DNA of 64,000 bases from an uncultured Pseudomonadota bacterium (GTDB taxonomy: Bacteria; Pseudomonadota; Alphaproteobacteria; Rs-D84): NCBI GenBank assembly GCA_937885575.1, contig CALABO010000014.1:20726-84725 (forward strand), read 5' to 3'. Within the stretch, counting starts at the first letter, position 1. Every line of letters begins with the position of its first letter. Positions 962-18,337 of this stretch are shown piece by piece. A program made the translations under genes and the position numbers. The notes under the pieces were generated by a model that was given only the letters and a program-made list of their open reading frames with translations, did not search any database and was not told where the DNA came from.

Positions 962-2278
962 ATGAAATTCATATCAAGGTTTTTTGGGAAACTTTCAGAT
1001 TTGCAAAAGCGTATTTTGTTTACGCTTGGGGCGCTGGTTATCTATCGCGTTGGTTCGTTTATTCCGTTGCCGGGCGTAAATGCGTCGGCGGTGTTGCACC
1101 TGTTTACCGGCGAAGGCAGTGGTATGATGGGCATGTTTGATATGTTCACCGGTGGGTCGCTTTCGCGTATGTCGGTGTTGGCACTCAACATTTTCCCGTA
1201 TATTTCGGCATCTATCGTGTTGCAATTGTTGACCGCGACCAGTAAATCGCTAAATGATTTACGCAAAGAAGGCGAATCGGGCCGTATCAAAATCAACCAA
1301 TATACGCGCTATTTGGCGGTATTGCTGGCCGTGGTTCAGGGTTGGGCCGTGGTGCGGGGGTTGGAGGTTATGGCGCCGGTCAATGGTGTGCGCGCGGTTG
1401 TGAATCCTGGATTTTCGTTTGAATTGTCGGCTATTATTGCACTGGTTGGTGGAACGGTTTTCGTTATGTGGCTTGCGGAACAAATTACCGCACGTGGCAT
1501 AGGCCAGGGCGCATCGTTGCTGATTTTCGCGGGCATTATCGCGCAAATTCCCGAAGGTGTCGCGAAAATTGTGTCCCTTGGGTCCGTTGGGCAAATGTCG
1601 CCGGCGATGATTGCGTTGGTGATTTTGTTCGTGGTTGGAATTGTCGCGCTGATTGCGTTCTTTGAATTGGCGCAACGTCGCGTGCAAATCTTGTACCCGC
1701 GCCAGGTTATGGCGAACGGTGTTGTGAATACGAACGCATCTTACTTGCCGATAAAGGTCAATATGTCGGGCGTCATGGGGCCGGTGTTTGCGTCGTCCAT
1801 TATGATGTTGCCGGCGTTCGTGCAACGATTCGTTCAAAGTGAAAACTTGGTTGTGCAAAGTATCATGGGGTTCTTTACGTATGGCGCGTGGTCATATATC
1901 ATTTTATATACGATTTTGATTGCGTTCTTTGCGTATTTCCAAACGGCGGTCGTGTTTAATTCTGAGGAAACCAGTAATAATCTGCGCAATGCCGGCGGTT
2001 ATATTCCGGGTGTGCGGCCGGGCGAACAGACGGTAAGTTTTCTTGATTCCATGGTTTCACGGGTGACGGCGATTGGCGTTTTGTACCTGATTGTCGTGTG
2101 CGTGTTGCCGATTATCTTGAATACGCACTTTGGAATGCCGCTGATGATTGGTGGAACCAGTGTTTTAATCGTTGCGGGTGTCGTGCTTGACACCATGAAC
2201 CAGGTGCAATCTTATTTGGTTGCGAAGCAGTATCATGGCGTTATGGGCGCCGCAAAGAAAGGTCGTTTCCGTAATTAA
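962..2278 (+). CDS. secY: preprotein translocase subunit SecY
   Basis: 438-aa polytopic membrane protein with canonical SecY N-terminus (LQKRILFTLGALVIYRVGSFIPLPG) and the expected position after rplO. Confidence 0.95.
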   Translation: MKFISRFFGKLSDLQKRILFTLGALVIYRVGSFIPLPGVNASAVLHLFTGEGSGMMGMFDMFTGGSLSRMSVLALNIFPYISASIVLQLLTATSKSLNDLRKEGESGRIKINQYTRYLAVLLAVVQGWAVVRGLEVMAPVNGVRAVVNPGFSFELSAIIALVGGTVFVMWLAEQITARGIGQGASLLIFAGIIAQIPEGVAKIVSLGSVGQMSPAMIALVILFVVGIVALIAFFELAQRRVQILYPRQVMANGVVNTNASYLPIKVNMSGVMGPVFASSIMMLPAFVQRFVQSENLVVQSIMGFFTYGAWSYIILYTILIAFFAYFQTAVVFNSEETSNNLRNAGGYIPGVRPGEQTVSFLDSMVSRVTAIGVLYLIVVCVLPIILNTHFGMPLMIGGTSVLIVAGVVLDTMNQVQSYLVAKQYHGVMGAAKKGRFRN

Positions 2279-2389
2279 AATTTACGCGAAACAAAGGTTT
2301 GACTTTTGCGCCGATTCGTATAGAATTGTCGTAATGGCAAAAATGGGGGCGGAAACGTCCGAACAAAAAAATAAAAAGGAAAAATAAAA

Positions 2390-2767
2390 ATGGCACGTAT
2401 AGCAGGTGTAAATATACCCACAGAAAAACGTATCGAGGCCGCGTTGCAATACATTCATGGCATTGGGCCAACCCGCGCCGCACAGATTTGCAAGGCACTG
2501 AAATTAAAGGACGGTCTGCGCGCAAAGGATTTGACCGACGAAGACGTTATCAAAATTTCGAACTATATCGAACAGAATTTCAAGGTCGAAGGTGATGTCC
2601 GTCGCGAAGTTGCGATGAATATCAAACGGCTGCAAGATTTGAAAACATATCGCGGTATCCGTCATCGTAACCGCTTGCCGGTGCGCGGTCAACGGACTCA
2701 GACGAACGCACGCACGCGCAAGGGTAAACGTATCGTTGTCGCGGGTTCTGCGGTCAAGGGTAAATAA
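2390..2767 (+). CDS. rpsM: 30S ribosomal protein S13
   Basis: [26 protein letters not shown].. is the canonical S13 sequence. Confidence 0.95.
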
Positions 2768-2831
2768 TAAAATTGGGTAGAGATTAACACGATAGTTAAT
2801 TGAAGACATCTAATCAAAGGAAAAAACAAAA

Positions 2832-3209
2832 ATGGCATTAAATAAAAAGAAAGTTGTAAAAAAAGTTTCGCACGGCATTGCACATGTCGTTGCCACAAAT
2901 AATAATACGCGTATCACAATCACCGATCAATCAGGTGCGGTTTTGACTTGGGCGACGGCGGGCGCGAATAATTTCAAGGGCGCAAAGAAATCGACCCCGT
3001 ATGCGGCGACGGTTGTCGCGGACGCGGTTGGCAAAAAGGTTGCCGAAATGGGTATGAAGACCGTCGATGTCCTTATGCGCGGAATTGGCCAGGGGCGTGA
3101 ATCCGCGGTTCGTGGTTTGGCGAATGCCGGGTTGGTTGTGCAAAGTATTACCGATACAACGCGTATTCCGCACAACGGTTGCCGTCCAAAGAAAGTGCGT
3201 AGAGTTTAA
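2832..3209 (+). CDS. rpsK: 30S ribosomal protein S11
   Basis: ..GIAHVVATNNNTRITITDQSGAVLTWATAG..PHNGCRPKKVRRV is the canonical S11 sequence. Confidence 0.95.
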   Translation: MALNKKKVVKKVSHGIAHVVATNNNTRITITDQSGAVLTWATAGANNFKGAKKSTPYAATVVADAVGKKVAEMGMKTVDVLMRGIGQGRESAVRGLANAGLVVQSITDTTRIPHNGCRPKKVRRV

Positions 3210-3210
3210 G

Positions 3211-3236
3211 AAAAAATCCGCCAAGGCGGATTTTTT
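3211..3236 (+). terminator. rho-independent terminator after rpsK
   Basis: Hairpin ATCCGCC-AA-GGCGGAT is followed by TTTTTT. Confidence 0.8.
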
Positions 3237-3266
3237 AGTGTGAGTGTTAGTGATTAGTGTAAGTGG
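3236..3266 (+). repeat. (T/A)AGTG hexamer array
   Basis: Sequence is tagtgtgagtgttagtgattagtgtaagtgg. It belongs to the same family as the arrays at 21254, 23976, 25007, 38451, 41131, 41185(-), 46508, 49443, 49577(-) and 59097. Confidence 0.8.
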
Positions 3267-3291
3267 AACCGGTGCGTTGCTCCGGTTTTTT
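3267..3291 (+). terminator. second hairpin plus T-run downstream of rpsK
   Basis: AACCGG-tgcgttgct-CCGGTT is followed by TTTTT. Confidence 0.6.
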
Positions 3292-3292
3292 G

Positions 3293-3447
3293 TATGGATT
3301 CCAGAGAACAAAGTTCCCCTCTGTCGCGCCTTTGGCGCGACGAAGAGAGGGGTGCCCCGTGGAACGGGGCGGGGTGTGGTGGTTGCGTACGTGTAGCAAA
3401 TTCACAGGAAGTCCGACAAGATACCGGCTTTCGCCGGTATGACGGCA
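3293..3447. repeat. nested palindromic REP/MITE-like element
   Basis: Modules present: attccagag, GTTCCCCTCT..AGAGGGGTG (with a nested gcgcc-tttg-ggcgc hairpin), GGCGGGGTGT, and TCCGACAAGAT-hairpin-GACGG. Each module recurs elsewhere in the window. Confidence 0.7.
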
Positions 3448-3528
3448 TTTTTATTAGTTTCTTGCGCCGGGCATCATTTTATGATACAATATTCCCCATA
3501 GGGAGATTTTTAATAAAAGGAAAGAGAG

Positions 3529-4563
3529 ATGAAAAAACTGCTTGTGTTTTTTATGGTTTTGTTTGGAATAAGTTTGGGCGCGATGGCGGATGAGTTTGGA
3601 GATTTGATGGAATACGGCAAGCGTGTCGGTCCGTGTGTATTAAAGCCTGGTGGTGCTGACGTAGATGGGACATATGCTATATTTTTTAAGACTGGGGAAG
3701 CGAAACCAACGCAAGAATGTATAAATGATTTTAATAAGATTAAAGAAGAATTGGATGATTTATATAAAAACGGAGATGTTGAATATTTTGTAGTTGTGGG
3801 AAGTGCTGATTCACAAGGCGCCGCATCTGATTATCCAAATGATGTTTTGTCGGGAAATCGTTATAATTATGCGATTACAGAGATAATTCCAGAATATTCA
3901 GAGGTTAGAGATGAGGGTTGGCTGTCTGGCGATGTTACAGGGCGTTTGTTTAAGAAAGAAAGAATAAAAAATCCATTATATAGAAGTGTGTATATTTATG
4001 TTGGTTGGCGACTTGCACAGTGTCCAGCAAAGTTTGTTGGAAAATTGGATGCGTATGAAAAAGAATTGGTGGACGCTTTAGGTAAATACCCGAATTCAAA
4101 GAACAAGATACAAGACGCTTTAAATGGTGTAAAAAAGGCAAAGGAAATTTGTGGTGATGGTGGTAAAACGTTGAGAGCAAGCAAAGTTGAGCAATTGTTG
4201 GATGAGGTGTATCGTATGTTATTGGATGTTGGTGATATAGTCGTGTCAATTGGGGTCATGAATACAGATGTTGGCATTGATGTTTCCTATCAGGAGAATT
4301 CGATTGATTTGCAATATTCGAAACTTGATAATTTGCGGCGCGAGTTCGGACTTTCCGTGTGGCGGGATGAAAATGGGAATTTTAATACTGCGCGGTTGGT
4401 GTCAGATTCGATTGCCGGCGTTGTTTTGGGGACCGTTGGTGGGATTGTGACCAGTAAATTGGTCAAGAAAAATCAATTAAAGAAAGGTTTTGAAGATATT
4501 GGTTGTTATGTCGGCGGTCAATCCGTCGCCGGATACGGTGATGAGTTTTATGTAGGACGGTAA
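3529..4563 (+). CDS. secreted or membrane-anchored hypothetical protein; possible divergent OmpA-C-like segment and C-terminal glycine-zipper helix
   Basis: Signal peptide MKKLLVFFMVLFGISLGAMA. VVVGSADSQGAASDYPNDVLSGNRYNYA...NPLYRSVYIYV loosely follows the OmpA-like GHTD..G..N..LS..R...NRRVEI pattern. IAGVVLGTVGGIVTSKLV is hydrophobic. A good RBS (aaaggaaagagag) precedes the ATG. Confidence 0.6.
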   Translation: MKKLLVFFMVLFGISLGAMADEFGDLMEYGKRVGPCVLKPGGADVDGTYAIFFKTGEAKPTQECINDFNKIKEELDDLYKNGDVEYFVVVGSADSQGAASDYPNDVLSGNRYNYAITEIIPEYSEVRDEGWLSGDVTGRLFKKERIKNPLYRSVYIYVGWRLAQCPAKFVGKLDAYEKELVDALGKYPNSKNKIQDALNGVKKAKEICGDGGKTLRASKVEQLLDEVYRMLLDVGDIVVSIGVMNTDVGIDVSYQENSIDLQYSKLDNLRREFGLSVWRDENGNFNTARLVSDSIAGVVLGTVGGIVTSKLVKKNQLKKGFEDIGCYVGGQSVAGYGDEFYVGR

Positions 4564-5226: not shown

Positions 5227-5544
5227 TAGAAAAATGTATTGTGTTCAACCCCTTGAAAATGCTGGAAAAAACATTTTGACCCCAATGTTCCCGTATACAA
5301 ATATGTAGTTTTTGCAAAAAAGGGCGAATTTCGTACCGGTTTTTGATTGTTTTTGATGGCATATGATTTGCTCGTGCGAGTACGAATTGCCGGAATTTTT
5401 GAGAAAGAAAAACAATAAAAAACCGCAGAAATCTGCGGTGTATCTTGGCTCAGATGTATAAACTTGGTTCGAACAAGGGATATCTTAGATTTACTTAGCT
5501 TGGGTAAAAGTATTGAAAAGATTTTGCAGCGTTATCCAGTATAA

Positions 5545-5572
5545 TCGTGTAAATTCGTGTAAAATCGTGTAA
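5545..5572 (+). repeat. three 10-bp-phased direct repeats of TCGTGTAA
   Basis: TCGTGTAA occurs at 5545, 5555 and 5565, about 75 bp outside attL. Confidence 0.6.
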
Positions 5573-5644
5573 GTTCCCATGTCAACCCAGCAGAAATCAG
5601 GCAAAAACCCAAAATTTATTCGTTTGCCATCCCATCTGCTCAAC

Positions 5645-5662
5645 TGACATACGGATTAACAG
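5645..5662 (+). repeat. attL core (TGACATACGGATTAACAG)
   Basis: Identical 18-mer at 16611-16628. Confidence 0.8.
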
Positions 5663-5763
5663 TCCTAGTGTCAGTATTTAAATAATTTTTAATTTTTTAT
5701 AATTTTTCTTGATTTTCTGCGGGTTCTACACTATAATATATGGTATATGAAGTTTAACGAAGT

Positions 5764-5829: not shown

Positions 5830-7014
5830 ATGAAAACAGAACGCATCAAATTTACACAGAAAACAATCGACGCATTGCCAGTGCCAGAATCAGGCCAGAA
5901 GATATATTATGACACAGATTCCAACGATGGTTTGTGCCTGATTGCATCATATGGTGGGTCAAAAACCTATTTTTTGCAAATGTTTTTTCGTGGTCGTGGC
6001 ACCAAGACCAAAATCGGGTCGGCCAAGATTATGAAATTGGCCGAAGCCAAAGCAAAGGCACACACATTGCGTGAACGTGCTGAACAGGGAATAGACCCAA
6101 GTCAGGAACGTAATGAAGCGTTGCGGGATATGACATTGAAACAGTTTTTCTATGATGTTTATTATCCAAGACACGTCAAGGTTCACACGCGCCCAAAAAC
6201 ACAGGCCAAAGATGAAACAATGTTTCGTAATAATCTGGCAATGTTTCACAGTCGCAAGATGATGAGCATAACCAAAGCGGATGTTGAACGGTTGCACGTT
6301 GAATTGAAGGACAGAATAAGTTTATACACGGCAAACCGTGCGATTGGTATGTTAAAGCATATGTATAACAAAGCCATTGAATGGGGGTATCCAGCGCACA
6401 GCGGTAATCCTGTTGTTGGTATAAAGATGTTCAAAGAACGGTCCCGTGAACGTTTCCTGCAACCAGATGAGATTAATCGGTTCTTTGCTGCGTTGTATGA
6501 AGACCCAAATGAAATGTTTAGGAATTATATTTTGTTATCATTATTTATCGGTCAGCGACGCCAAAATATGTTATCTATGCGCTGGTCTTATGTGGATTTA
6601 AAACTTGGTGTTGTGTCGTTCCCAGATTCCAAGAACGGTGACCCCCAGCGCATCCCGTTAATAACACAGGCGTGGGATATTCTGAAAGAAATGCGCCGTC
6701 ACGCAACAGACGATTGGGTGTTTTCAAGCCAGAACGGCAGCAAAAGTGGTCACGTTGAAGATTTGCATCGGCCTTGGTATGCTTTGTTAAAGCGTGCTGG
6801 CATAGAAGATTTGCGTTTGCACGATTTGCGACGCACATTTGGTAGTTATCAGGCCATCACAGGTGCAAGTTTGCATATAATTGGCAAGTCCTTGGGTGAC
6901 AAAACCAGCGCAGCAACCAAAGTTTATTCGCGTCTGACAATGGACCCTGTTCGTGATTCAATTCAGCGTGGTGCAGACAAGATGTTGGAATTCGTAGAAC
7001 AAAACAAAGCGTAA
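5830..7014 (+). CDS. int: tyrosine-type site-specific integrase (P4-like, N-terminal arm-binding domain)
   Basis: The N-terminus KFTQKTIDALPVPESGQKIYYDTDSNDGLCLIASYGGSKTYF is typical of the DUF4102 arm-binding domain. The C-terminus has HDLRRTFGS and a ..KVYSRL.. catalytic Tyr region. Confidence 0.9.
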   Translation: MKTERIKFTQKTIDALPVPESGQKIYYDTDSNDGLCLIASYGGSKTYFLQMFFRGRGTKTKIGSAKIMKLAEAKAKAHTLRERAEQGIDPSQERNEALRDMTLKQFFYDVYYPRHVKVHTRPKTQAKDETMFRNNLAMFHSRKMMSITKADVERLHVELKDRISLYTANRAIGMLKHMYNKAIEWGYPAHSGNPVVGIKMFKERSRERFLQPDEINRFFAALYEDPNEMFRNYILLSLFIGQRRQNMLSMRWSYVDLKLGVVSFPDSKNGDPQRIPLITQAWDILKEMRRHATDDWVFSSQNGSKSGHVEDLHRPWYALLKRAGIEDLRLHDLRRTFGSYQAITGASLHIIGKSLGDKTSAATKVYSRLTMDPVRDSIQRGADKMLEFVEQNKA

Positions 7015-7074
7015 AAAGTTTTTATGGCTTTTTAACACAAAATCTTTACAATACACCACAACAAGGATAAAAAT

Positions 7075-8334
7075 ATGACAGCAGAAATCGTGGTCTATAA
7101 TAGAAATGCAATAGCGCTGGCTGCAGATAGTGCGGTCACCGTTGGGAGAAAAACATACAATTCGGCAAATAAATTATATATGTTGTCAAAGTATTATCCT
7201 GTCGGGGTTTTGATATATAATAGTGCCCGAATAAACAATATCCCCGTTGAAATAATAGTAAAAGAATATCGAAAACGCTTAGGACGCAGATGTTTTGATT
7301 TCCTTAAAGAATACAAAGAAGATTTCGTAAAGTTTTTGCGTTCGTTTATCCAAGAGCAAGAAAATGAAATGGATAAAAAGAACAGCATACTTGTTCAATT
7401 GCAAAATATGTTTTATTTTGTGACGTCTGGACCAGATGTGCCGCAAGTGCAACAAGGACAGGATTTTTTTGAAGAATTTAATAAACACTTGGATAGGGTT
7501 TTTGATGAAATTAGTAAAATTGTTCCCGCAGAAAAAAATGTGGATTTGACACTTGTAGATATTAAAACCGAAATGGCCAACATTATTCGTGCGTTGATGA
7601 AGATACAAGATATCAATGAACAAACACTGGATAAATTGGAAAAGTTGTTTCCATATTACATAAATATGCAAGGTAATCCAAATGTCACAGGTATCGCGAT
7701 ATGCGGTTATGGCGAAAAAGAATTTATGCCGAAAGTATATTGTTTTGAAACCTTAGGTTTTCTTAATGATTGTTTTAAATTGACAGATACCCAAACGAAT
7801 GAAAATACTGTGGAGGGGGTTATCCCGTTGGCACAACGGGATATGGCGGATTTATTTATTTCTGGCATTGATGATGGTGTTTATAAATTTATTGTCAAAC
7901 AATATGAAGATTTTATAGATGATTTATTTTCTGAAACAACCCAGGCAGATGCTGCATTTGCAAGATATGTGAAAATATATAAATCGAAAGTATCCGAGAA
8001 GATACAGGGGATTTTAACAGAAGAAAAAATACAGCCATTGTTAAACGTAATAGGTATACTTTCAAAAGAAGAATTGGCAGAACTTGCAGAAAGTTTAGTA
8101 AATTTACAGGCATTAAAACATAAAATGTCATTGAATATCGAAACTGTTGGTGGGCCTATTGATGTGGCAATAATATCTAAACACGATGGTTTTATATGGA
8201 AAAAACGAAAATTATATTTTGATAAAGATTTGAATAGTCATTTTTTTGAAAATTACTTTTCTAAAGATGATAATTGTGATAAAATAAAGACCAAAGGGGT
8301 GGATGATGACGACTTATCTGGTTGTAAATGCTAG
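7075..8334 (+). CDS. divergent proteasome-beta / HslV-like Ntn-hydrolase family protein with a large insertion
   Basis: M-T-AEIVVYNRNAIALAADSAVTVGRKTYNSANKLYML parallels TTIV...vvlAaDtrat.g....KK of the HslV/20S-beta N-terminus. Counting from Thr, Asp falls at position 17 and Lys at position 32. The C-terminal VGGPIDVAIISKHDGFIW resembles the conserved GG...va.i.kdG strand. Confidence 0.5.
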   Translation: MTAEIVVYNRNAIALAADSAVTVGRKTYNSANKLYMLSKYYPVGVLIYNSARINNIPVEIIVKEYRKRLGRRCFDFLKEYKEDFVKFLRSFIQEQENEMDKKNSILVQLQNMFYFVTSGPDVPQVQQGQDFFEEFNKHLDRVFDEISKIVPAEKNVDLTLVDIKTEMANIIRALMKIQDINEQTLDKLEKLFPYYINMQGNPNVTGIAICGYGEKEFMPKVYCFETLGFLNDCFKLTDTQTNENTVEGVIPLAQRDMADLFISGIDDGVYKFIVKQYEDFIDDLFSETTQADAAFARYVKIYKSKVSEKIQGILTEEKIQPLLNVIGILSKEELAELAESLVNLQALKHKMSLNIETVGGPIDVAIISKHDGFIWKKRKLYFDKDLNSHFFENYFSKDDNCDKIKTKGVDDDDLSGCKC

Positions 8335-8335
8335 T

Positions 8336-8473
8336 ATGATGGGGCAGTATAACAGATTGCCGACGTTTATCGGACACCAAGATTTGGGACGCCGTATGGC
8401 ACGCGAGTTTCGTGCAAATTTTCAAAAAAAATATGCCACGAAGTCAAAGAAAAAAAGCGTTAAATTTAAATAA
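8336..8473 (+). CDS. possible 45-aa basic micro-ORF, translationally coupled to the Ntn-hydrolase-like gene
   Basis: ATG lies 1 nt after the upstream TAG stop. Translation is MMGQYNRLPTFIGHQDLGRRMAREFRANFQKKYATKSKKKSVKFK. It is below the ORF-track length cutoff. Confidence 0.25.
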   Translation: MMGQYNRLPTFIGHQDLGRRMAREFRANFQKKYATKSKKKSVKFK

Positions 8474-8718: not shown

Positions 8719-9720
8719 ATGATAACGGTGAATGATTTTTTTGAACAAGAAAAAGAATGTGGTTATAAAGATGAAACATATTCGGTGCGCGATAATGGTG
8801 CAGTTATGCGTCACGCCAGAGAAGGCAAAATAAAACGTAAACTGGATGAAATATGGACCTTTGGGGATAAGAATACCAAGAATGGGTATATGTATTTAGG
8901 CACGGTTAGGGTGCACAGAATTGTTGCGGCGGCGTTTCTTGATAAAGAACCATCACCAACGCACGTTATTGACCATATAGATACCAACAAATGTAATAAT
9001 CGACCAGCTAATCTGCGTTGGGTCACGAGATTGGAAAATGCATTGTCTAACCCAATAACAAGGAAACGAATAATAGCGTGTTGTGGTAGTATTGAAAAAT
9101 TCTTAGAAAATCCTGCATTGTTGAGAGAAGGTAGTGTAGACCAAAACTTTGATTGGATGCGGACCGTATCCCCAGAAGAAGCAAAAATCAGCAGAGATAA
9201 ACTGGAACGTTGGGCCAAAGAAGATTCTATGCCGACGGGTAAAGGAAAATTGGGCGAATGGGTATACCAAAAAGATGCGGTTGAAGAAGAACAAGAAGAC
9301 AATAATGACGAATATGAACAGGTCACCCAGTCAGAAACACCAAATGCTGTCCAGATTAACTGGCACACGCCAACTTTATTTCCTTTATGTCCAAAACAGC
9401 CAGGGGATAACCCATTGCAAGAATATTTGGATAAATTGGTTGAAGATGCCGTCTTCGCAACAAATCAATATGGAAATTCAATGGTTTTAAAAGCGGATTT
9501 TAATAAAGAACGTAATGCGATTTTTGTGGCCACTTACACAGATTCAGAAAGTGCGGCGAAAGGGTATGCGTTGGCCAAGATAGAATATGATAACACCAAC
9601 AATGTTTTTCGTCACGAATCCAGGGGAACATTTTTCTTTGATGATGGTGTAATGAAATATTTTACCACAGAACGCGGGTATGAGTGGGATGGCGAAGAAG
9701 TTTTTGATGATTTATGTTAA
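8719..9720 (+). CDS. HNH endonuclease (phage homing-endonuclease type) with an unknown acidic C-terminal half
   Basis: HRIVAAAFL..HVIDHIDTNKCNNRPANLRWVTRLEN is an HNH_3-type motif. The upstream YSVRDNGAVMRH resembles NUMOD4. Confidence 0.75.
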   Translation: MITVNDFFEQEKECGYKDETYSVRDNGAVMRHAREGKIKRKLDEIWTFGDKNTKNGYMYLGTVRVHRIVAAAFLDKEPSPTHVIDHIDTNKCNNRPANLRWVTRLENALSNPITRKRIIACCGSIEKFLENPALLREGSVDQNFDWMRTVSPEEAKISRDKLERWAKEDSMPTGKGKLGEWVYQKDAVEEEQEDNNDEYEQVTQSETPNAVQINWHTPTLFPLCPKQPGDNPLQEYLDKLVEDAVFATNQYGNSMVLKADFNKERNAIFVATYTDSESAAKGYALAKIEYDNTNNVFRHESRGTFFFDDGVMKYFTTERGYEWDGEEVFDDLC

Positions 9721-9843
9721 AATATAGTAATATCCAAATATTGCCCCCTTAATTCTGTAAAATTGTATTGATTTAATTCTTGTTTTATTGTATATAAAAA
9801 GTGGCTGTAATGTGCTTTTTATGAAGTGGAAAGGATTTTGTAA

Positions 9844-11352
9844 ATGACTGATACACCAAAGAAAGATATATTGGAATATTTACAATGTATGGTGAACACG
9901 GAAACACCGACCCCACCAAAGGTTGTAAATGATATGTTGGATTTAATTCCTGACAGTGTTTGGGCTGATGATGGTGCTAAAATACTATGCCCAGCGTGCA
10001 AAGATGGTATATTTTTGCGTGAAGCAACTCTTAGGATTTTGCGTAAAAAATATGAACAAATGGGGCCAGTCGCATTTCGTAAACACCAAGATGAAATAGT
10101 TGACCATATATTGCGTAATCGTATGTTTGGAATTGCAATATCGTATCGTGGGTATCGGGTGACCAAACGTAGTTTATATACTTGCAGTAATAAATTTGCA
10201 GGTATAGATAATATATATTTTAATGAAGATTATGGTCGTTATGTACAAGATAAATCTGGTAAAGAAGTAGAAAAGCAATGTTTCCATTTTATTGAAAATA
10301 TTGATGAAGTTTCCAAGTTTTTTGAAGGCAAAGGGGTAAAGAATATGCATTTTGATGTAATTATTGGTAATCCGCCGTATCAAACCAACGATGGTGGAGC
10401 TGGTGCCAGCGCAACACCCATTTATAATGATTTTGTGGACCAAGCCAAAAAATTAAATCCACGTTATCTAACGATGATTATCCCTAGTCGTTGGTTTTCA
10501 GGTGGTAAAGGGCTAGATGCATTCAGAAATAGGATGTTGACCGATAAAAAGATGAGTAAGTTAGTCGATTTTTTTGATGCAACAGATTGTTTCCCTGGGG
10601 TTGATATATCTGGTGGTGTTTGTTATTTCCTATGTGATAACAACAAAAACAAAGAGTGTGAAGTATGCACCGTTAGAAATGGGGTAACATCTTGTATAAC
10701 AAGACCATTGTTGGCATATGGTTCTGATAGTTTTATTCGTTTTAATGAAGCAACGTCTATTGTTGAAAAAGTAAAAAGTTTTGATGAAGAATCTTTTGAG
10801 GAATTAGTTAGTTCGAGAAAACCTTTTGGCCTTGGTACAAAATTAAACATCAAGAAGAAACAAACAAAAGAAGATGATGTTCAAATTTATGCATACCCTG
10901 ATAATGGTTTTGTAAATCGTTCTGAAATACAAGTCAATAGAGAATGGATAAATAAATATAAAGTTTTAATGGGTAAAGCATATGGTGAAAGGGGAAGTTT
11001 TCCATATTGGGTTTTAGGAAAACCGAAAATTGTTACCCCTGGGACTTGTTGTTCGGAAACATATTTGGTTGTTGCTCCTGATAATTCTGCTAAAATAGTA
11101 CAAAATGTGTCCCAATATATCCAAACAAGATTTTTCAGATTTTTGGTTTTATTGAAGAAAAACACTTTAAACGCTCCTAAAGGGGTTTACAAATTTGTCC
11201 CAAAGCAGGATTTTAGTAAAGAATGGACTGATGAAAAATTATATAAAAAATATAATCTTACCAAAGATGAAATAGCGTTTATAGAATCTATGGTCAAACC
11301 AATGGATAAAGATACAGAAATTGTAGATAATATAGATATAGACAATGAATAA
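9844..11352 (+). CDS. N6-adenine DNA methyltransferase, Eco57I-like gamma class (NPPY)
   Basis: FDVIIGNPPYQ has NPPY at nt 10369-10380. The N-terminal TPTPPKVVNDML resembles motif X. The motif I position reads ILCPACKDGIF, which lacks the GxG. Confidence 0.8.
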   Translation: MTDTPKKDILEYLQCMVNTETPTPPKVVNDMLDLIPDSVWADDGAKILCPACKDGIFLREATLRILRKKYEQMGPVAFRKHQDEIVDHILRNRMFGIAISYRGYRVTKRSLYTCSNKFAGIDNIYFNEDYGRYVQDKSGKEVEKQCFHFIENIDEVSKFFEGKGVKNMHFDVIIGNPPYQTNDGGAGASATPIYNDFVDQAKKLNPRYLTMIIPSRWFSGGKGLDAFRNRMLTDKKMSKLVDFFDATDCFPGVDISGGVCYFLCDNNKNKECEVCTVRNGVTSCITRPLLAYGSDSFIRFNEATSIVEKVKSFDEESFEELVSSRKPFGLGTKLNIKKKQTKEDDVQIYAYPDNGFVNRSEIQVNREWINKYKVLMGKAYGERGSFPYWVLGKPKIVTPGTCCSETYLVVAPDNSAKIVQNVSQYIQTRFFRFLVLLKKNTLNAPKGVYKFVPKQDFSKEWTDEKLYKKYNLTKDEIAFIESMVKPMDKDTEIVDNIDIDNE

Positions 11353-11860
11353 ATGTTCTTTGATAAAATCTTGCACACGCGTTAGGGACCTTGGGGAAGT
11401 TTTTACCCCGCGTAAAATTGTGCGGGATATGTGTAATTTGATTCCGAAAGAAGTGTGGAAAAATATAGATGCAACTTTTTTAGAACCTGCGTGTGGAAAT
11501 GGCAATTTTATAATTGAAATATTAAATAGAAAATTAAAACGCTGTAAAACAATCGATGAATGTGTTCGTGCCCTGAAATCTATTTATGGTGTAGATATAA
11601 TGCAGGATAATGTTGAAGAATGTCGGTGCAGAATGCTGGGTATTGTATTGGCTGAAATCCAAAAAAAAGAATGTGTATGTTGGCATAATATTAAAGATTT
11701 TGTTGATGTATTAGAAACGAATATCATCTGTGGAGATACATTAACAATGTTGGATTGTAATGGCGAAGATTTAAAATTTAAAGATTGGAAAACTGGTGAA
11801 TTTGAAACACTGAAACAGATGTTGAATGCAGAACCTGTGCAAACAGAATTAAATTTATAA
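11345..11860 (+). CDS. methyltransferase N-terminal-half-like protein (motif X + intact SAM motif I, no NPPY)
   Basis: GEVFTPRKIVRDM (motif X) and FLEPACGNGNF (motif I). The start overlaps the upstream stop by 8 nt. Confidence 0.6.
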   Translation: MNKCSLIKSCTRVRDLGEVFTPRKIVRDMCNLIPKEVWKNIDATFLEPACGNGNFIIEILNRKLKRCKTIDECVRALKSIYGVDIMQDNVEECRCRMLGIVLAEIQKKECVCWHNIKDFVDVLETNIICGDTLTMLDCNGEDLKFKDWKTGEFETLKQMLNAEPVQTELNL

Positions 11861-11869
11861 GGATGCAAT

Positions 11870-14470
11870 ATGAATATCTATGTTATTTCAAATCCTAATG
11901 ATGGAAGAAACCTTGTAAAGGTAGGGCAAACAAAACGAAGTTGGGCAGAGCGTGAAAAAGAATATCGTACACACGGTACCAATCCGCAAGTTTGGCATAT
12001 TGAATATGATACAACCTTAACAGATGATGACATTAAGCACGTTTTAATCAATGATTTGCACTATACAACCGAAGGAACCGTCGGGGATGAATGGTATGTG
12101 ATTCCAGATGGTGAAACAGAGAAAGATTTTGCTAACAAAGTCAAAGCAGTGATAGTTTCTTTGAAACACAATGAACCTTTGGATTTATTAAGAACACAAG
12201 ATTTTGACCCCAGGGATGAGCAGAAAGAATGTGTTAAGAAAACTTTGACAGCATTTAATGCTGGTAGTGACAAATTCCTTTGGAATTGCAAAATGCGTTT
12301 TGGGAAAACTTTCACAACATATCAGTTGATGAAACAGGCAAATTTTCAAAATATATTGGTTTTAACTTGGAAAGTTGCGGTTGAAAAGGGATGGAAGGAA
12401 GATTTATTGTCGCATCGTGATTTCAAAGGCATTAACTTTGTAAACAAGGATGCATTGGCAACTTTTGATAAATCCAAGCGTAATGTCGTGTTCTTATCAA
12501 TTCCTTTGCTATTGGCGAATACATCCAAAGATGCGAAGGCAGCGGAAGATTCTGAAACAGAAGATGATGCGGCGATTTCAGATGCCAGTATCAATGCATT
12601 TGCAGATAAAATTAAATCAATTGCAGATATGAACTGGGATTTATTGGTAATCGACGAAGCACATTATGGAACACGTGCCAAAAATACCAAAAAGATTTTA
12701 GAAAAATTAAAATACAAAAGGAAACTAGAATTATCAGGAACGCCATTCAAAATATTGGATGACGCAGAATACCATTCTGATGAAATTTATAATTGGACAT
12801 ACAAACAAGAACAGGCAGCAAAATATGGGTGGAAAGGACCAAAAGACCAAAATCCATATAAAGATTTGCCAGATATGCACATTTATACTTTCGATGGTGC
12901 ACGTGAACTGATAAATGATTTTTCAGATACTGTGTTCAATATCAACGTATTGTTTAAAACACATACAGAAAAAGATAAAAATAATAAACCTGACCCCACA
13001 ACAGCGACGTTCGTAAATTTGGATTCTGTAAAAAGAATGATTGATTTTATGTGTGGTGAGCAATTTGACCTGACAGAAGACAAAGATATTAAAGAATATG
13101 ATGTGGTTTTGCCGTATTTCCAAGATATGGTTGATAAAAACAAAAAATCAATCTGGTTTTTGCCTGATGTTGCGTCTGTCTGTGCAATGGAAAAATTATT
13201 GAATAACCATAAAATCTTCAAGAATTATAAAATAATAAATGCTTCTGGGGCGGGTGAAGGGTCCAGTGCAAAATCATTAGATAAGTTTCACGAATTGGAA
13301 CAGAAAACAGATAAAATTATTTGTTTGTCTTGTGGTATGTTGAACACAGGTGTGACTATCAGGCCTTTAAATTCTGTTGTTATGTTGCAGGACAAGCATT
13401 CGGCACAAGATTTCTTTCAATCGATATTTAGGTGTCAAAGTCCTTGCCCACCCGATAAAAGCGATTGTTATGTGTTTGATTTTAACCCGCAGCGTTATTT
13501 CAATAATATGTTGGAATTTTCAAAGGTTAATTCAAGTAAACGTAACCCACGTGAAGTGTTGGAAGAAAACCTTATTGAAACACATTTATATATTGATGGG
13601 AATATGATTGCAACCAACTATGATGATATTATGCAATATGTAAGTTTTGAAGTTAGTCCTGAACGCTTAAAAAAGTATTTTATCAGGTCAAATAATATCA
13701 AAGTTGAAACATTGGAAAATTCGGCAAAAGATATATTAGAAATCATTGATAGTATCCCATATTATAAAAAAGAAACTAAAACAGCAGAAAAGACACAGAA
13801 AAAAACTGGGAACAGCAAGAAAAAACAAGGGAAAAAACCACCTATATCCCCAGAACGTAAAAAAGCATCAGAATATGATATTCGTAAGGCAAAGTTGGAT
13901 ATTTTAATTTCCAGTTTGACGATATTTATTTATATCACAAATGCCCAAGAATCAAATGTTTATGAAATAATCACAACCAAAGAACCCGATTTGTTCAACA
14001 AGATTTGCTTTATTGATGTAGAACAATTCAAAAAATTATATGACTATAAAGATAAAAATGGACGCAGCTTCTTCAAACACGATATTTTGGATAAAGCGAT
14101 TGCCAAATTCAAAAATGAAGAATTTGTGTCGCGTGACTGGGATGAAATTTTACGTGATGAATTTGGTTTGCCACGTGTGGTTGCAACAAAGAAAATTACT
14201 GGCAATCAATTTTCTTTTGATGAAATTGGGTTAAAAGCAGGTGCCGAATTAACTTTTGCTTTAGACCCAAATAAAAGATGCTATGTTGCACCTGATTTAA
14301 GGAATGTGACATACCAAGCAAATTTATATTCTTTGTCTGATTTGGCCAGAATATTGGCAAAAGAAATGGGTGGTAAAGATTGGGAACATCGTGGCCCAAA
14401 ATATTTTGAATATCGTGGGGTTAAATTATCAAAAATTGTGGAAGACATAAATGCCCAATTGGATAGTTGA
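11870..14470 (+). CDS. T5orf172 (GIY-YIG-like) nuclease domain fused to an SF2 DEAH helicase (restriction res-subunit-like)
   Basis: The N-terminus IYVISNP..LVKVGQTKRSWAEREKEY...GDEWYVIP follows the T5orf172 pattern. Walker A is RFGKTFT (about aa 145), DEAH is LLVIDEAHYG (aa 262-265), and motif VI is like QDFFQSIFRCQSP. Confidence 0.75.
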   Translation: MNIYVISNPNDGRNLVKVGQTKRSWAEREKEYRTHGTNPQVWHIEYDTTLTDDDIKHVLINDLHYTTEGTVGDEWYVIPDGETEKDFANKVKAVIVSLKHNEPLDLLRTQDFDPRDEQKECVKKTLTAFNAGSDKFLWNCKMRFGKTFTTYQLMKQANFQNILVLTWKVAVEKGWKEDLLSHRDFKGINFVNKDALATFDKSKRNVVFLSIPLLLANTSKDAKAAEDSETEDDAAISDASINAFADKIKSIADMNWDLLVIDEAHYGTRAKNTKKILEKLKYKRKLELSGTPFKILDDAEYHSDEIYNWTYKQEQAAKYGWKGPKDQNPYKDLPDMHIYTFDGARELINDFSDTVFNINVLFKTHTEKDKNNKPDPTTATFVNLDSVKRMIDFMCGEQFDLTEDKDIKEYDVVLPYFQDMVDKNKKSIWFLPDVASVCAMEKLLNNHKIFKNYKIINASGAGEGSSAKSLDKFHELEQKTDKIICLSCGMLNTGVTIRPLNSVVMLQDKHSAQDFFQSIFRCQSPCPPDKSDCYVFDFNPQRYFNNMLEFSKVNSSKRNPREVLEENLIETHLYIDGNMIATNYDDIMQYVSFEVSPERLKKYFIRSNNIKVETLENSAKDILEIIDSIPYYKKETKTAEKTQKKTGNSKKKQGKKPPISPERKKASEYDIRKAKLDILISSLTIFIYITNAQESNVYEIITTKEPDLFNKICFIDVEQFKKLYDYKDKNGRSFFKHDILDKAIAKFKNEEFVSRDWDEILRDEFGLPRVVATKKITGNQFSFDEIGLKAGAELTFALDPNKRCYVAPDLRNVTYQANLYSLSDLARILAKEMGGKDWEHRGPKYFEYRGVKLSKIVEDINAQLDS

Positions 14471-15361: not shown

Positions 15362-16255
15362 TTAAAGTGGGTGTATATCTGCATCGGTGAATCGTGGCCT
15401 GAAATAAACTTCTTTGGTGTTGGCAATCGGAAAACAGGTGGGCCTTAATTCAGGATATCCTTCAAAAGCGACAAATATGCAATGGCACATTTTGTCATCT
15501 GTAAGAACTTGGTATCTGGTATATTTGAAATTATCAACCAAATCTTTTTTACTGATGGTTTGGTTTGGGTGTTCAATGTAAAATTTAATCCATTCGTATC
15601 GTTTGCTGTCAGGTCTTAACTTGTATATGAGTGTGGTTTTTGTGCCATCGCAATCGCATAAACGACCATCATCTGTAAGCGTCACGGTGTGACGTTTAAT
15701 TGGGTATGTTTTTTGTAAATTGGCAAAGTTAATTTTTATATCACGATATGATGTTTGGTAATGTGGTTGTGTTGGCACAGCAACAATCCAGTTGTATATG
15801 ATGTCCAATTCCCATTCGTCTGGCAATATAACCGTTATGCGTTTGTTATATCCTTTTGGGTCATAGTTTTTATGCTTATGGATGTTTTTGTTCATCACGG
15901 TGTGATGTTCTGTCCAATCTGGCCAAGCAGGGTCAGCAATGCCTGTGACCGTAATAGCACCAGATTTAATCAGGCCATATAACACACCAAGGGCCTTCGT
16001 CATTTGTCTGTTATAATGGTTATTGACTTTATTGTCTTCATCGTATTTATCGTCTGGTGGTATAATTGGGCTTCCAAATGCGTCACCGTGCGTTAAAAAC
16101 GCATAATTGGTTGACCGCACATATTCCATTCTGTCGCATAATTGTTCGTTGGACTTCGTGCGTGGTTCCCAGCCAAATGCGATATATTCGCAGGCCTGTT
16201 TTAATGTGCATTGGGATTCAATAGGGGGAATAATAACTTTCTTTTTCTGCTTCAT
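15362..16255 (-). CDS. hypothetical protein (island cargo)
   Basis: Long AT-rich ORF. ATG at 16255 is preferred over TTG at 16270. No recognisable motif. Confidence 0.6.
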   Translation of the reverse strand: MKQKKKVIIPPIESQCTLKQACEYIAFGWEPRTKSNEQLCDRMEYVRSTNYAFLTHGDAFGSPIIPPDDKYDEDNKVNNHYNRQMTKALGVLYGLIKSGAITVTGIADPAWPDWTEHHTVMNKNIHKHKNYDPKGYNKRITVILPDEWELDIIYNWIVAVPTQPHYQTSYRDIKINFANLQKTYPIKRHTVTLTDDGRLCDCDGTKTTLIYKLRPDSKRYEWIKFYIEHPNQTISKKDLVDNFKYTRYQVLTDDKMCHCIFVAFEGYPELRPTCFPIANTKEVYFRPRFTDADIHPL

Positions 16256-16390
16256 AACCAATCCTTTCAATACAATATGATTCCCACATCCCCACCTGCA
16301 TCTTAATATAGTTCAACGAAGTGTTTTTTCAATGTGTTGCACCGAATTTAATGGGTGTTTTTTGTGGTATCCACCACCCCTATACCCCAT

Positions 16391-16537: not shown

Positions 16538-16583
16538 AACTTTGCAAAAAGAAAAGGGATTCTGCTGAACCCCTTGGAATCTG

Positions 16584-16635
16584 TGGCTCGGGCAACTGGA
16601 CTCGAACCAGTGACATACGGATTAACAGACCTTAC
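16584..16635 (-). pseudogene. tRNA-Asn(GUU)-like 3' fragment (anticodon loop, T arm, acceptor 3' strand, CCA); no D arm or 5' half
   Basis: The minus strand reads CTGTTAA-TCCGT-ATGTC-ACTGG-TTCGAGT-CCAGT-TGCCCGA-G-CCA. The upstream sequence cannot form a D arm or an acceptor 5' strand. Confidence 0.65.
16611..16628 (+). repeat. attR core (TGACATACGGATTAACAG)
   Basis: Identical to 5645-5662. It overlaps the anticodon-loop/variable-region part of the tRNA-like fragment and ends 10 bp from the rplQ stop codon. Confidence 0.8.
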
Positions 16636-16638
16636 TAC

Positions 16639-17202
16639 TTATTTCCCGGTGGCGCGGCGTTTTACCGCAACGGTCTTTTTGGCCGCGGTGGCTTTTTTCG
16701 CCGTCGGTTCTTTGGCCGGGGCTTTTGTTGCTTTTTCGGCCTTTGGCGCCTTGGGTGCTTTTGGCGCATCGGTTGCGATCGCTTCCTCGGCCTTGGCCGC
16801 GGCAACGTCCGGTTTTTGTGCCGGTTTTTTTGCGTTCACATCGCGGTCAACAAATTCGATAATTGCCATCGGTGCGGCATCGCCATAGCGGAAACCGGCC
16901 TTTAACACGCGGGTGTATCCGCCCGGGCGTTTCGCATAGCGTGGCCCAAGCACCGTGAACAATTTTTTCACGGTTGCATCGCACGCGTTGCCCAATTCCG
17001 ACGCGGTCAGGCGACGGTTCGCAACGGTATCAACCTTGGCGCGGGTAACCAATTTTTCCACGACACTGCGCAGATCTTTGGCCTTTGGCAAAGTTGTTTT
17101 GATTTGTTCTTTTTCAATCAGGTTCTTTGCAAGCCCAATAAACAAGGCCTTGCGTGCATTTGTGTCGCGATTAAAAGTGCGACCTGCTTTTTGGTGTCTC
17201 AT
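16639..17202 (-). CDS. rplQ: 50S ribosomal protein L17 with a roughly 60-aa Ala/Lys/Pro-rich C-terminal extension
   Basis: [46 protein letters not shown] is canonical L17. It is followed by [48 protein letters not shown]. Confidence 0.9.
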
Positions 17203-17308
17203 CGGTTACTCCTTTATTTTGTTTCCGCCCGGTTCCCCGGGATTGCACCACTTTTCGTGTCCCAAATCAGTGATTCAGCAACACGCGTTTTTTGAATTCC
17301 CAATAATT

Positions 17309-18337
17309 TTATTTATATGGGTCTTCGTATTTCTTGGCCAACTCCGCAATGTTTTCTGGCGGCCAACCCGGGACCTCCATCCCAAGCCCAAGGCCCATCG
17401 CTTCCAATTGGATTTTGATTTCGTTCAATGACTTGCGTCCAAAGTTCGGGGTCTTTAACATATCCGCCTCGGTCTTTTGGACCAATTCGCCAAGCCAGTT
17501 GATTTTGTCGTTTTTCAAACAATTGTTCGCACGCACAGACAATTCCAATTCGTCCACGCGTTTCAACAATTTCGGATCGAACTGCAACGCGTCTTTGGCA
17601 ACTTCTTCTTCGGTCGGTGTCGCGATTTGCGCCGGATCTTCGAAATTGATGAACAAAGTCAATTGGTCGGTCAAGATGCGCGCCGCAAATGCGATTGCGT
17701 CTTCGGGTGTGACACTGCCGTTCGTTTTGACGGTCATTTCCAATTTGTCATAGTCCGTTGATTGCCCAACACGGGTTTCCGAAACCACGGTCGCGACATT
17801 CAAAATTGGTGAAAAGATTGAATCAACCGGAATCACGCCCAGTGGCAACCCATCGGCATGTGCGTTCGCCGGAACATAGCCACGGCCCGTGCCAAGTGTG
17901 ATTTCCATATCTAACCCAGCCCCTTTGTCCAGTGTGCAAAGTTCCGCATCGGGGTTCATAACCTCTATTGCACTTGGGCATTCAATCATGCCTGCCTTGA
18001 CAACCGCCGGACCGGTCACGTGCAGATTAACCTTGTGTTGACCTTCGGAATTTGCCTTGAAATAAACACCTTTTAGGTTCAATAAAATATCCGCGACATC
18101 TTCGTGCACGCCTTGGATACTTGAAAATTCGTGTTGAACACCTTCGATTTTAACATACAGTGGCGCGCAACCTTGGAGTGAAGACAACAGAACACGACGC
18201 AATGCCGTGCCAAGTGTAAGACCAAACCCTTTTTCCAACGGTTCCGCGACCAATTTGGCCATGTTCGGATTATGTTCATCGGTGGTGATATTCAGTTTTT
18301 TCGGCTTTATCAAAGCCATCCAGTTTTTTTCAATCAT
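17309..18337 (-). CDS. rpoA: DNA-directed RNA polymerase subunit alpha
   Basis: 342 aa. N-terminal [11 protein letters not shown].., [17 protein letters not shown], and a C-terminal domain [24 protein letters not shown]. Confidence 0.95.

Follow-up and report, generated by a model that had tools for sequence, protein, structure and literature searches.

The closest described relatives of the system reported here are found among the 22 new families of proteasome homologs described by Fuchs, Alva & Lupas in 2021 (PMC8665760). Variants 3 and 4 of their PMI ('multiple insertions') type carry a long insertion after helices H1/H2 and another between H3 and H4, and PMI-4, with 501 sequences at 90% identity from all major bacterial phyla, Euryarchaeota and phages, is the largest of the new families. 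According to these authors, the insertions would hinder assembly of proteasome-like rings or double rings, at sites that control access and oligomerisation, and neither an AAA+ partner nor any genomic context or co-occurring gene points to a function (PMC8665760). The subject of this work is a pair of genes on a 64,000-nucleotide stretch of DNA from an uncultured Pseudomonadota bacterium (contig CALABO010000014.1, positions 20,726 to 84,725), which we refer to as the window. The first gene encodes a 419-residue proteasome-beta-like protein, and the second, directly following and probably overlapping it, a very small partner. Together they constitute an autonomous, horizontally mobile two-gene cassette made of a proteasome-like enzyme and a small protein.

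The window protein is most likely a PMI-4 member, a placement made from the published description of the family and not by sequence match. It has in common with PMI-4 the Thr1/Asp17/Lys33 core, the lack of a propeptide, both insertion sites, a broad distribution that includes phages, and the absence of an AAA+ partner. A reading made earlier from the DNA letters alone (hereafter, the sequence-only reading) had seen in the protein a candidate new effector or regulator. The protein family itself is not new, as insertion-bearing homologs of the PMI-3 and PMI-4 type were already catalogued in 2021, without function, partner or context (PMC8665760). In contrast with PMI-4 as published, we can add a small partner gene and locations in prophages and defence islands. 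What is new is therefore not the protein, which belongs to a catalogued and uncharacterised family, but its conserved and often unannotated partner, and the mobile and defence-related surroundings of both.

The large protein begins MTAEIVVYNRNAIALAADSAVTVGRKTYNSANKLYML, and its residues 358-375 read VGGPIDVAIISKHDGFIW. A length of 419 residues, the Met-Thr start, Asp17 and Lys32 counted from Thr, and the C-terminal segment had all been listed by the sequence-only reading, and each is found exactly so in the open reading frame (ORF). In an alignment of 50 homologs, with identities of 32-83%, the residues D18, S19, A20, T22, K33, K39, G44 and V358-G359-G360-P361-x-D363-V364-A365 are invariant, and M1 and T2 are conserved in at least 90%; as judged from this alignment, the conservation of the motif residues is far from chance. 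The family is large. A search of 5.8 billion proteins retrieved more than 6,000 full-length relatives of 400-450 residues, every one of them named 'hypothetical', and when a profile was run exhaustively against 1.84 billion cluster representatives, 6,501 clusters (50% identity) were matched at E<=1e-3, of which 3,778 at E<=1e-30. The first profile position coincides with the start of nearly all of the best 150 relatives found among these representatives, and therefore the family is one without a propeptide. Methionine aminopeptidase removes a Met that precedes Thr, and exposure of the predicted nucleophile is expected to need the removal of the initiator Met and nothing else.

Relatives are present in at least 536 species genomes, those of Methanosaeta and Methanobrevibacter included, in 13 deposited phages or satellites, and on 225 IMG/VR contigs. 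Within PHROGs, the large protein is matched over its full length by phrog_5990, of unknown function (E=2.6e-96). Scans of the large and the small protein against Pfam, NCBIfam and PADLOC gave nothing significant; the sub-threshold matches that these scans did return, to SelO, CARF-HEPN, DUF2064 and others, were rejected as chance.

To place the protein structurally, an AlphaFold2 model was built from the 50-sequence alignment (mean predicted local distance difference test, pLDDT, 85; predicted template modelling score, pTM, 0.82). As modelled, the protein is a four-layer alpha-beta-beta-alpha sandwich of the N-terminal nucleophile (Ntn) hydrolases, of proteasome-beta type. The top 50 Foldseek matches in the PDB are exclusively 20S proteasome beta subunits or Anbu, with E-values from 9e-6, probability 1.0 and template modelling (TM) scores, normalised to the target, of 0.5-0.57; the Anbu chains are fold-level matches only, at TM ~0.48. 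The best viral-model matches, found with Foldseek in BFVD, are phage proteasome-like proteins. The family profile ranks the beta subunit of Thermoplasma acidophilum first (E=0.022), and when the insertions are deleted from the profile the same subunit reaches E=0.0015, the next unrelated match being at E=0.37. The resulting alignment is collinear, with Thr1 on Thr2, Glu17 on Asp18, Lys33 on Lys33, and SGGMIDVAVITRKDGYV on VGGPIDVAIISKGDGFI. Based on these results we consider the fold and the Thr1/Asp17/Lys33 triad established: conservation, profile alignment and structure comparison agree with the sequence-only assignment to the proteasome-beta/HslV type, and the structural and profile searches which that reading had proposed recover the Ntn fold whose absence would have spoken against it. 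Weak PDB matches of residues 354-390 to cathepsin L (E 0.06-0.3), obtained with a single-sequence search, were rejected; profile searches replace them with proteasome beta, in agreement with the fold search. The invariant Gly44 opens the strand 43-49, roughly at the place of the oxyanion Gly47, as far as alignment and secondary structure alone can place it.

The secondary structure of the model shows where the protein departs from a standard subunit. Strands S1-S5 (residues 4-49), H1 (58-69) and H2 (77-95) are followed by a first helical insertion, which varies in sequence and length across the 50 homologs; S6-S9 (205-253) and H3 (256-286) come next, and after a second insertion the core is completed by H4 (331-351), S10-S11 (362-377) and a short helix. 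The tail, residues 396-419, is modelled with pLDDT below 50 and is probably disordered. The sequence-only reading had described about 200 helical residues without a proteasome counterpart; helical inserted sequence is indeed present, but as two insertions, of about 100 and about 40 residues, which are split by genuine core elements.

This architecture separates the window protein from the proteasome homologs that are better understood. HslV and the 20S beta subunits have in common with it the Ntn sandwich, the N-terminal Thr, Asp17, Lys33 and the C-terminal GG-x-[IV]-D-V strand. However, HslV has about 175 residues and is encoded next to hslU, whereas the window protein is more than twice as large, with helical insertions of about 145 residues in total, and has an invariant Ala-Gln where HslV and 20S beta subunits have the Ser129/Gly-Ser-Gly-Ser motif. 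HslV and 20S beta are, moreover, encoded by core genes, whereas the gene found here is accessory and mobile, and has no HslU, AAA+ or alpha-subunit gene nearby. As for Anbu, its operon includes ATP-grasp, alpha-E and transglutaminase-like genes, and the protein ends in a C-terminal coiled-coil helix, H5; neighbours of the Anbu-operon type are absent from the window's island, and a Pfam census found none recurring beside relatives.

These differences bear on the simplest explanation, namely, that the enzyme is a housekeeping quality-control protease in the manner of HslV or the uncapped 20S particle, carried by the island through chance. The proteasome fold and the catalytic triad would suit such an enzyme, and at some loci the neighbours of the cassette are housekeeping genes. 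Distribution says otherwise, as only 9 of 5,426 complete E. coli genomes have the cassette, which is therefore accessory, while it recurs on phages, satellites and islands. An AAA+ or alpha-subunit partner is neither encoded in the window's island nor conserved beside relatives, in keeping with the published survey, and the insertions would hinder ring formation (PMC8665760). We therefore regard the housekeeping explanation as highly improbable and, given its distribution, close to refuted, and the enzyme is free-standing, as proposed at the outset from the sequence.

Immediately after the stop codon of the large gene (TAG, 8332-8334) and one further T, an ATG at 8336 opens a 45-codon ORF that ends at 8473, whose product has an isoelectric point of 11.2 and 13 Lys and Arg residues. 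A second ATG, at 8303, lies in frame with this ORF and gives a 56-codon form which overlaps the large ORF by 32 nt. The downstream ATG has no Shine-Dalgarno-like site, and similar purine-rich sites to the AAAGGGGTGG of the upstream one are found before the partners at three relatives' loci, L001, L015 and L185. The 56-residue form was also chosen by a gene caller on an independent contig, and it can be aligned over its entire length with the partners found beside large proteins of 59-66% identity, with which it has in common a hydrophobic N-terminus, P-x-F, a (D/N)LGxxIAxEF helix and a Lys-rich tail. ATG 8303 is favoured because of this full-length alignment and of the Shine-Dalgarno-like AAAGGGGTGG, and the partner in the window thus probably starts there, with 56 residues. 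In other words, the coupled, basic 45-residue micro-ORF of the sequence-only reading is a real and conserved gene, but its start is most likely 33 nt further upstream.

A small gene on the same strand directly follows the large gene in every annotated relative that we examined. Its product has 59 residues in a gut prophage, 49 in a Klebsiella prophage, 58 in a Streptococcus satellite, 58 in a Providencia phage, 55 in a Porphyromonas phage, and 69, 37, 62 and 49 in four further relatives. For a quantitative estimate, an ORF was counted as a partner if it had an ATG start and 45-80 codons and began at -20 to +60 nt relative to the large gene's stop codon. The loci came from 78 species genomes, and their remaining ORFs of 300 codons or more served as controls. 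A partner was found in 67 of the 78 loci, against 42 of 492 controls (Fisher p=4e-46), and in 74 loci with looser limits. Among dereplicated IMG/VR loci the figures are 50 of 60, against 19 of 126 controls (p=1e-19). The 74 candidate partners start mostly at or near the end of the large gene, 28 of them overlapping it and 32 lying within 16 nt of its stop codon (60 of 74 together), the arrangement expected for translational coupling.

In their own sequences, too, the partners are related to each other. A phmmer comparison yields two larger groups, with 27 and 15 members, besides several small ones, and iterated hidden Markov model searches merge 46 of 80 into a single family. The layout of this family consists of a basic N-terminus; a motif of the type F-R-S-x-x-E-F-E-K-x-Y-F-P-K-S, summarised by the pattern [EQ][WFY]x[KR]x[FY][FN]P[KS] and reading LREWQKKFNPSK in the partners from gamma-proteobacterial prophages; a linker; and an amphipathic helix, (D/P)xxlGxxLAkEsLxxikxxL. 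Most partners are thus proteins of 45-80 residues, usually basic, with these two motifs in common. The window partner is divergent: phmmer finds it significantly similar solely to the L015 partner, and its version of the Pro motif, QYNRLPTF, is weakly recognisable.

The conservation of a Pro-containing motif across partner subfamilies raises the possibility of an enzyme-substrate pair, by analogy with connectase, in which the motif would be a recognition and cleavage or ligation site and the product the active agent. Connectase is a monomeric archaeal proteasome homolog with helical insertions that acts as a sequence-specific protein ligase or transpeptidase (PMC7980362). To that extent it is a precedent for a lone proteasome-fold enzyme that acts on one motif, and a possible model for how the window enzyme might treat its partner or a target. 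However, in connectase H1/H2 are missing and two helices are inserted between S3 and S4 (PMC8665760), whereas the window protein keeps H1/H2, has its insertions elsewhere, and shows at the S3/S4 site just a short variable loop (residues 22-26). Connectase is furthermore limited to methanogens and does not travel on mobile elements, unlike the family described here. Since the motif is also hardly recognisable in the window partner, and the pair is not accompanied by biosynthetic or export genes, we see only a slim chance that the two proteins work in this way.

Two cases illustrate the fate of the small gene. First, in L001 (9259-9400) and L002, which carry the 83%-identical relative, the closest one, 1 nt is deleted from an A-run (A7, against A8 at 8422-8429 of the window); the partner thereby loses its Lys-rich tail and keeps the conserved helix, with the large gene intact. 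This deletion is identical in two assemblies from different samples. Second, E. coli H3 (L098, 10290-10440; NZ_CP010167.1, ~2825690-2825840) has an intact 49-residue partner (MSLKQAYERTQPKSINDFF...), followed by a hairpin terminator. Located after the gene for WP_000123148.1, this partner is unannotated in RefSeq, an omission that probably affects most cassette-bearing genomes. Clean terminators are also present in the cassettes of other relatives; in the window, a promoter and terminator scan around the cassette gave no more sites than shuffled sequence, and the small ORF is not followed by a clear terminator.

With respect to genomic context, the 145 nearest neighbours of the 78 loci belong to 176 different Pfam families, none of which is present in more than three loci, and the same census found no conserved third gene. 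No neighbour family recurs, and therefore the gene pair is the unit. Where this unit resides is more telling. In a gut Caudoviricetes prophage, for which the contig index lists 532 blocks, an S24 repressor gene is followed 12 nt later by the large gene, and then by the partner, a terminator, and RecT/YqaJ or ERF. The cassette hence sits behind the repressor, on the same strand and before the recombination genes, which resembles the slot of rexAB after cI in phage lambda. The lambda gene order is cI-rexA-rexB, transcribed from PRM. The likeness concerns position, and presumably timing of expression; there is no relationship in sequence or fold, and none in mechanism is implied. In lambdoid prophages of Klebsiella and E. 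coli, the cassette, on the opposite strand and adjoining HicAB, is flanked by antiterminator Q on one side and the holin/lysozyme genes on the other. In an Elusimicrobia prophage it is placed between a methylase gene and a DUF4160/DUF2442-helix-turn-helix (HTH) pair, just upstream of the terminase gene; in a Tissierella prophage, at the prophage end, after the lysis genes; and in Streptococcus satellites, as the last or next-to-last gene.

Other copies adjoin defence genes. Within the clade closest to the window, the cassette of one relative (83% identity) is next to GmrSD and an AAA_15/AAA_21 pair, and that of another (59% identity) has a C5-methylase restriction-modification (RM) system on one side and McrBC with a KAP NTPase on the other. 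Among the immediate neighbours of the 78 loci, the systems that PADLOC recognises include DISARM, type I RM, Hma, BrxH, HEC-06 and Mza, which are occurrences and not a measure of enrichment. Therefore, the alternative that the relatives are housekeeping genes never found near mobile or defence genes, which the sequence-only reading had raised against itself, fails, as they mostly reside on prophages, satellites and defence islands.

On the basis of this context, we propose that the cassette is a conflict module expressed from a resident element, be it an island, a prophage or a satellite, with superinfection exclusion or abortive infection as its most likely role; it may serve for addiction as well. 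As its effector, the Thr enzyme would cleave or transpeptidate one particular target and not degrade proteins in bulk, and the small protein would control it. An active site that is born mature would need a brake or a specificity device, for which the partner and the insertions are the obvious candidates. The partner might be an inhibitor or antitoxin which blocks the constitutively mature active site and is removed upon infection; alternatively, it might be an adaptor or decoy substrate that docks through the aromatic-x-basic-x-aromatic-x-Pro motif and the amphipathic helix. In either case, the enzyme would act once the control by its partner is lifted or redirected. Taken as a whole, this proposal has, in our view, about an even chance of being correct. 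More tentatively, we suggest that the cassette may be the first known representative of a widespread anti-phage or abortive-infection system, in which a Thr proteasome-fold effector is restrained by, or acts through, a tiny co-translated partner.

Several observations weigh against this proposal. First, the defence role is deduced from gene context, that is, guilt by association, and PADLOC, its candidate PDC and HEC models included, has no model that matches the large protein. Second, the context is not uniform: at many genome loci the neighbours are housekeeping genes, and the 66%-identity relative lies among hypothetical genes between aspS and pagL. Third, 4 to 11 of the 78 loci, depending on the limits used, have no recognisable partner, and the truncated partner of L001 and L002 is awkward for an essential antitoxin. 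Fourth, the proteasome 'pentad' adds to the triad a second catalytic pair, Ser129/Asp166 (PMC11947121), which is not conserved as such in the family. An invariant Ala253-Gln254 after S9 replaces GSGS and leaves no conserved Ser there, and therefore chemistry or specificity may differ, or the protein is perhaps not a protease; Glu356, conserved in at least 90%, is within one residue of the position aligned to Asp166.

The same evidence has to be read against two further explanations. One is a module resembling toxin-antitoxin (TA) systems, where a toxic Thr enzyme is neutralised by a short-lived small protein and the pair stabilises its carrier, with no anti-phage role. The coupling of two genes, one of them tiny, the autonomy and patchy distribution of the cassette, its presence on plasmids too, and its frequent proximity to other TA pairs (HicAB, hok and DUF4160/DUF2442-HTH) would all be in line with addiction. 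However, a large gene followed by a small one is the less common order in type II TA systems, the partner is truncated in L001 and L002 beside an intact large gene, and the rexAB-like position, together with RM, GmrSD and McrBC neighbours, fits defence at least equally. Addiction as the sole role is thus unlikely, although addiction and defence are not mutually exclusive.

The other explanation is that the cassette benefits the element itself during infection or induction, the protease, for example, removing a host defence or regulatory protein for counter-defence or takeover, or processing a protein encoded by the element. This would agree with the 13 deposited phage and satellite genomes and the 225 IMG/VR contigs, with the existence of other phage-borne proteasome homologs, PPH and AAH (PMC8665760), and with the Providencia and Porphyromonas phages, in which the cassette is co-oriented with late or structural genes; the latter arrangement fits a function in lytic growth too, and so counts against our proposal as well. 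Nevertheless, the cassette is also found in islands that are not phages, such as that of the window, and in chromosomal spots devoid of phage genes, it forms part of no conserved phage module, and in several prophages its transcription runs against the lytic genes or goes along with that of the repressor, which points to expression during lysogeny. We consider that a benefit to the element of this kind is rather improbable.

The conflict module proposed here would have conceptual company. Protease-based effectors of abortive infection and defence include Lit and the caspase-like, CHAT, Lon-like and trypsin-like effectors, and what these have in common with the cassette is the concept of a specific protease that is restrained until infection. 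To our knowledge, none of these effectors has the N-terminal-threonine proteasome fold. In the literature searched, we found no proteasome-like, Ntn or threonine protease linked to phage defence, no later paper giving the PMI-type family a function, and no mention of the E. coli accession WP_000123148.1. If the proposal is correct, the proteasome fold would for the first time be seen to underlie an immune module, and the largest orphan family of proteasome homologs would gain its first function; the proposal would also add threonine-protease chemistry to bacterial immunity or TA biology, and offer a natural example of how a propeptide-free proteasome-type active site is regulated. Irrespective of this, that orphan family now has two handles, namely, a conserved, coupled partner that gene callers and RefSeq often miss, and a consistent location at moron sites of prophages, in satellites and in islands rich in restriction genes. 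With both, a family of unknown function becomes open to testing, for which prophage copies exist in convenient laboratory hosts, E. coli and Klebsiella, including WP_000123148.1 with its 49-residue partner.

Table 1. Features of the cassette and of the island that carries it, in window coordinates.
Feature	Position	Strand	Basis or remark
Large gene, 419-aa proteasome-beta-like (PMI-type) N-terminal-threonine hydrolase (predicted)	7075..8334	+	ORF call, homology and model
Shine-Dalgarno-like AAGGA	7063..7067	+	7 nt 5' of the large gene's ATG; read from sequence
Thr2 codon, predicted N-terminal nucleophile after Met removal	7078..7080	+	At least 90% conserved; aligns with Thr1 of the T. acidophilum beta subunit
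Asp18 codon (Asp17 in Thr1 numbering)	7126..7128	+	Invariant in 50 homologs
Lys33 codon (Lys32 from Thr; structural equivalent of proteasome Lys33)	7171..7173	+	Invariant; aligned with T. acidophilum Lys33
Helical insertion 1, ~residues 98-195, four helices, after core H1/H2	7366..7659	+	AlphaFold2 model
Helical insertion 2, ~residues 289-329, one long helix (293-328), between H3 and H4	7939..8061	+	AlphaFold2 model
VGGPIDVA, residues 358-365, conserved C-terminal strand of the proteasome fold	8146..8169	+	Invariant; aligned with T. acidophilum SGGMIDVA
Shine-Dalgarno-like AAAGGGGTGG before ATG 8303, inside the 3' end of the large gene	8293..8302	+	Sequence; similar sites in relatives
Small partner gene, 56-codon form preferred (45-codon form from ATG 8336)	8303..8473	+	ORF and alignment with partners of relatives
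Left direct-repeat copy, 22 nt, candidate attL	5645..5666	+	21/22 identical; 164 nt upstream of the integrase gene
Tyrosine integrase	5830..7014	+	Pfam Phage_integrase E=3.7e-17, Arm-DNA-bind_3 E=6.7e-12
333-aa protein, N-terminal HNH_3, C-terminal half unassigned	8719-9720	+	Pfam E=3e-15; PADLOC homing-endonuclease model E=1e-11
Eco57I-family methylase, 502 aa	9844-11352	+	PADLOC type II methyltransferase E=3e-58, type IIG E=6e-49
171-aa ORF, overlaps the methylase end	11345-11860	+	Weak N6_Mtase match
866-aa protein, ResIII helicase domain, weak T5orf172 N-terminus	11870-14470	+	Domain matches
302-aa ORF, sole minus-strand island gene, right end	15362-16270	-	No Pfam match
Right direct-repeat copy, candidate attR	16611..16632	+	Inside a fragment resembling a tRNA 3' half

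The island of the window measures 11 kb and is bounded by the direct repeats listed in Table 1, of which about 4e-4 such pairs are estimated to occur by chance in 14 kb. Between the repeats the guanine plus cytosine (GC) content is 33-39%, against 45-50% outside. The integrase gene is followed by the cassette, the HNH_3 protein, the Eco57I-type methylase, the N6_Mtase ORF, the ResIII protein and the 302-aa ORF, and so the large gene is the first cargo gene of a mobile island, near nuclease and methylase genes, as had been recognised from the sequence. The block 9844-14470 is restriction-modification-like. The HNH_3 neighbour is decaying in L001 (~9560-9790), where an open frame is retained just for the part after the HNH domain.

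The edges of the island show some further peculiarities. A segment at 16578-16632, on the minus strand, looks like a tRNA 3' half, with a T-arm (GGTTCGAGTCC) and an acceptor end; it holds the right repeat, abuts the stop codon of rplQ and may be a remnant of the integration target. Neither ARAGORN nor Rfam called anything within the island or at this att-like repeat. Three tandem copies of a unit of the TCGTGTAA(A/G) type (tataatcgtgtaaattcgtgtaaaatcgtgtaag) are found at 5540-5578, some 70 nt beyond the left repeat on its outer side. Finally, secY, rpsM and rpsK lie on the plus strand (962-4563), with rplQ and rpoA on the minus strand 13 kb away (16639-18337), an inversion relative to the usual secY...rpsK-rpsD-rpoA-rplQ order. 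A 344-aa ORF (3529-4563) without Pfam match occupies the expected place of rpsD/rpoA, and the GC skew changes sign near 16 kb. This arrangement may have arisen through a genuine inversion linked to the island, or it may reflect an assembly join.

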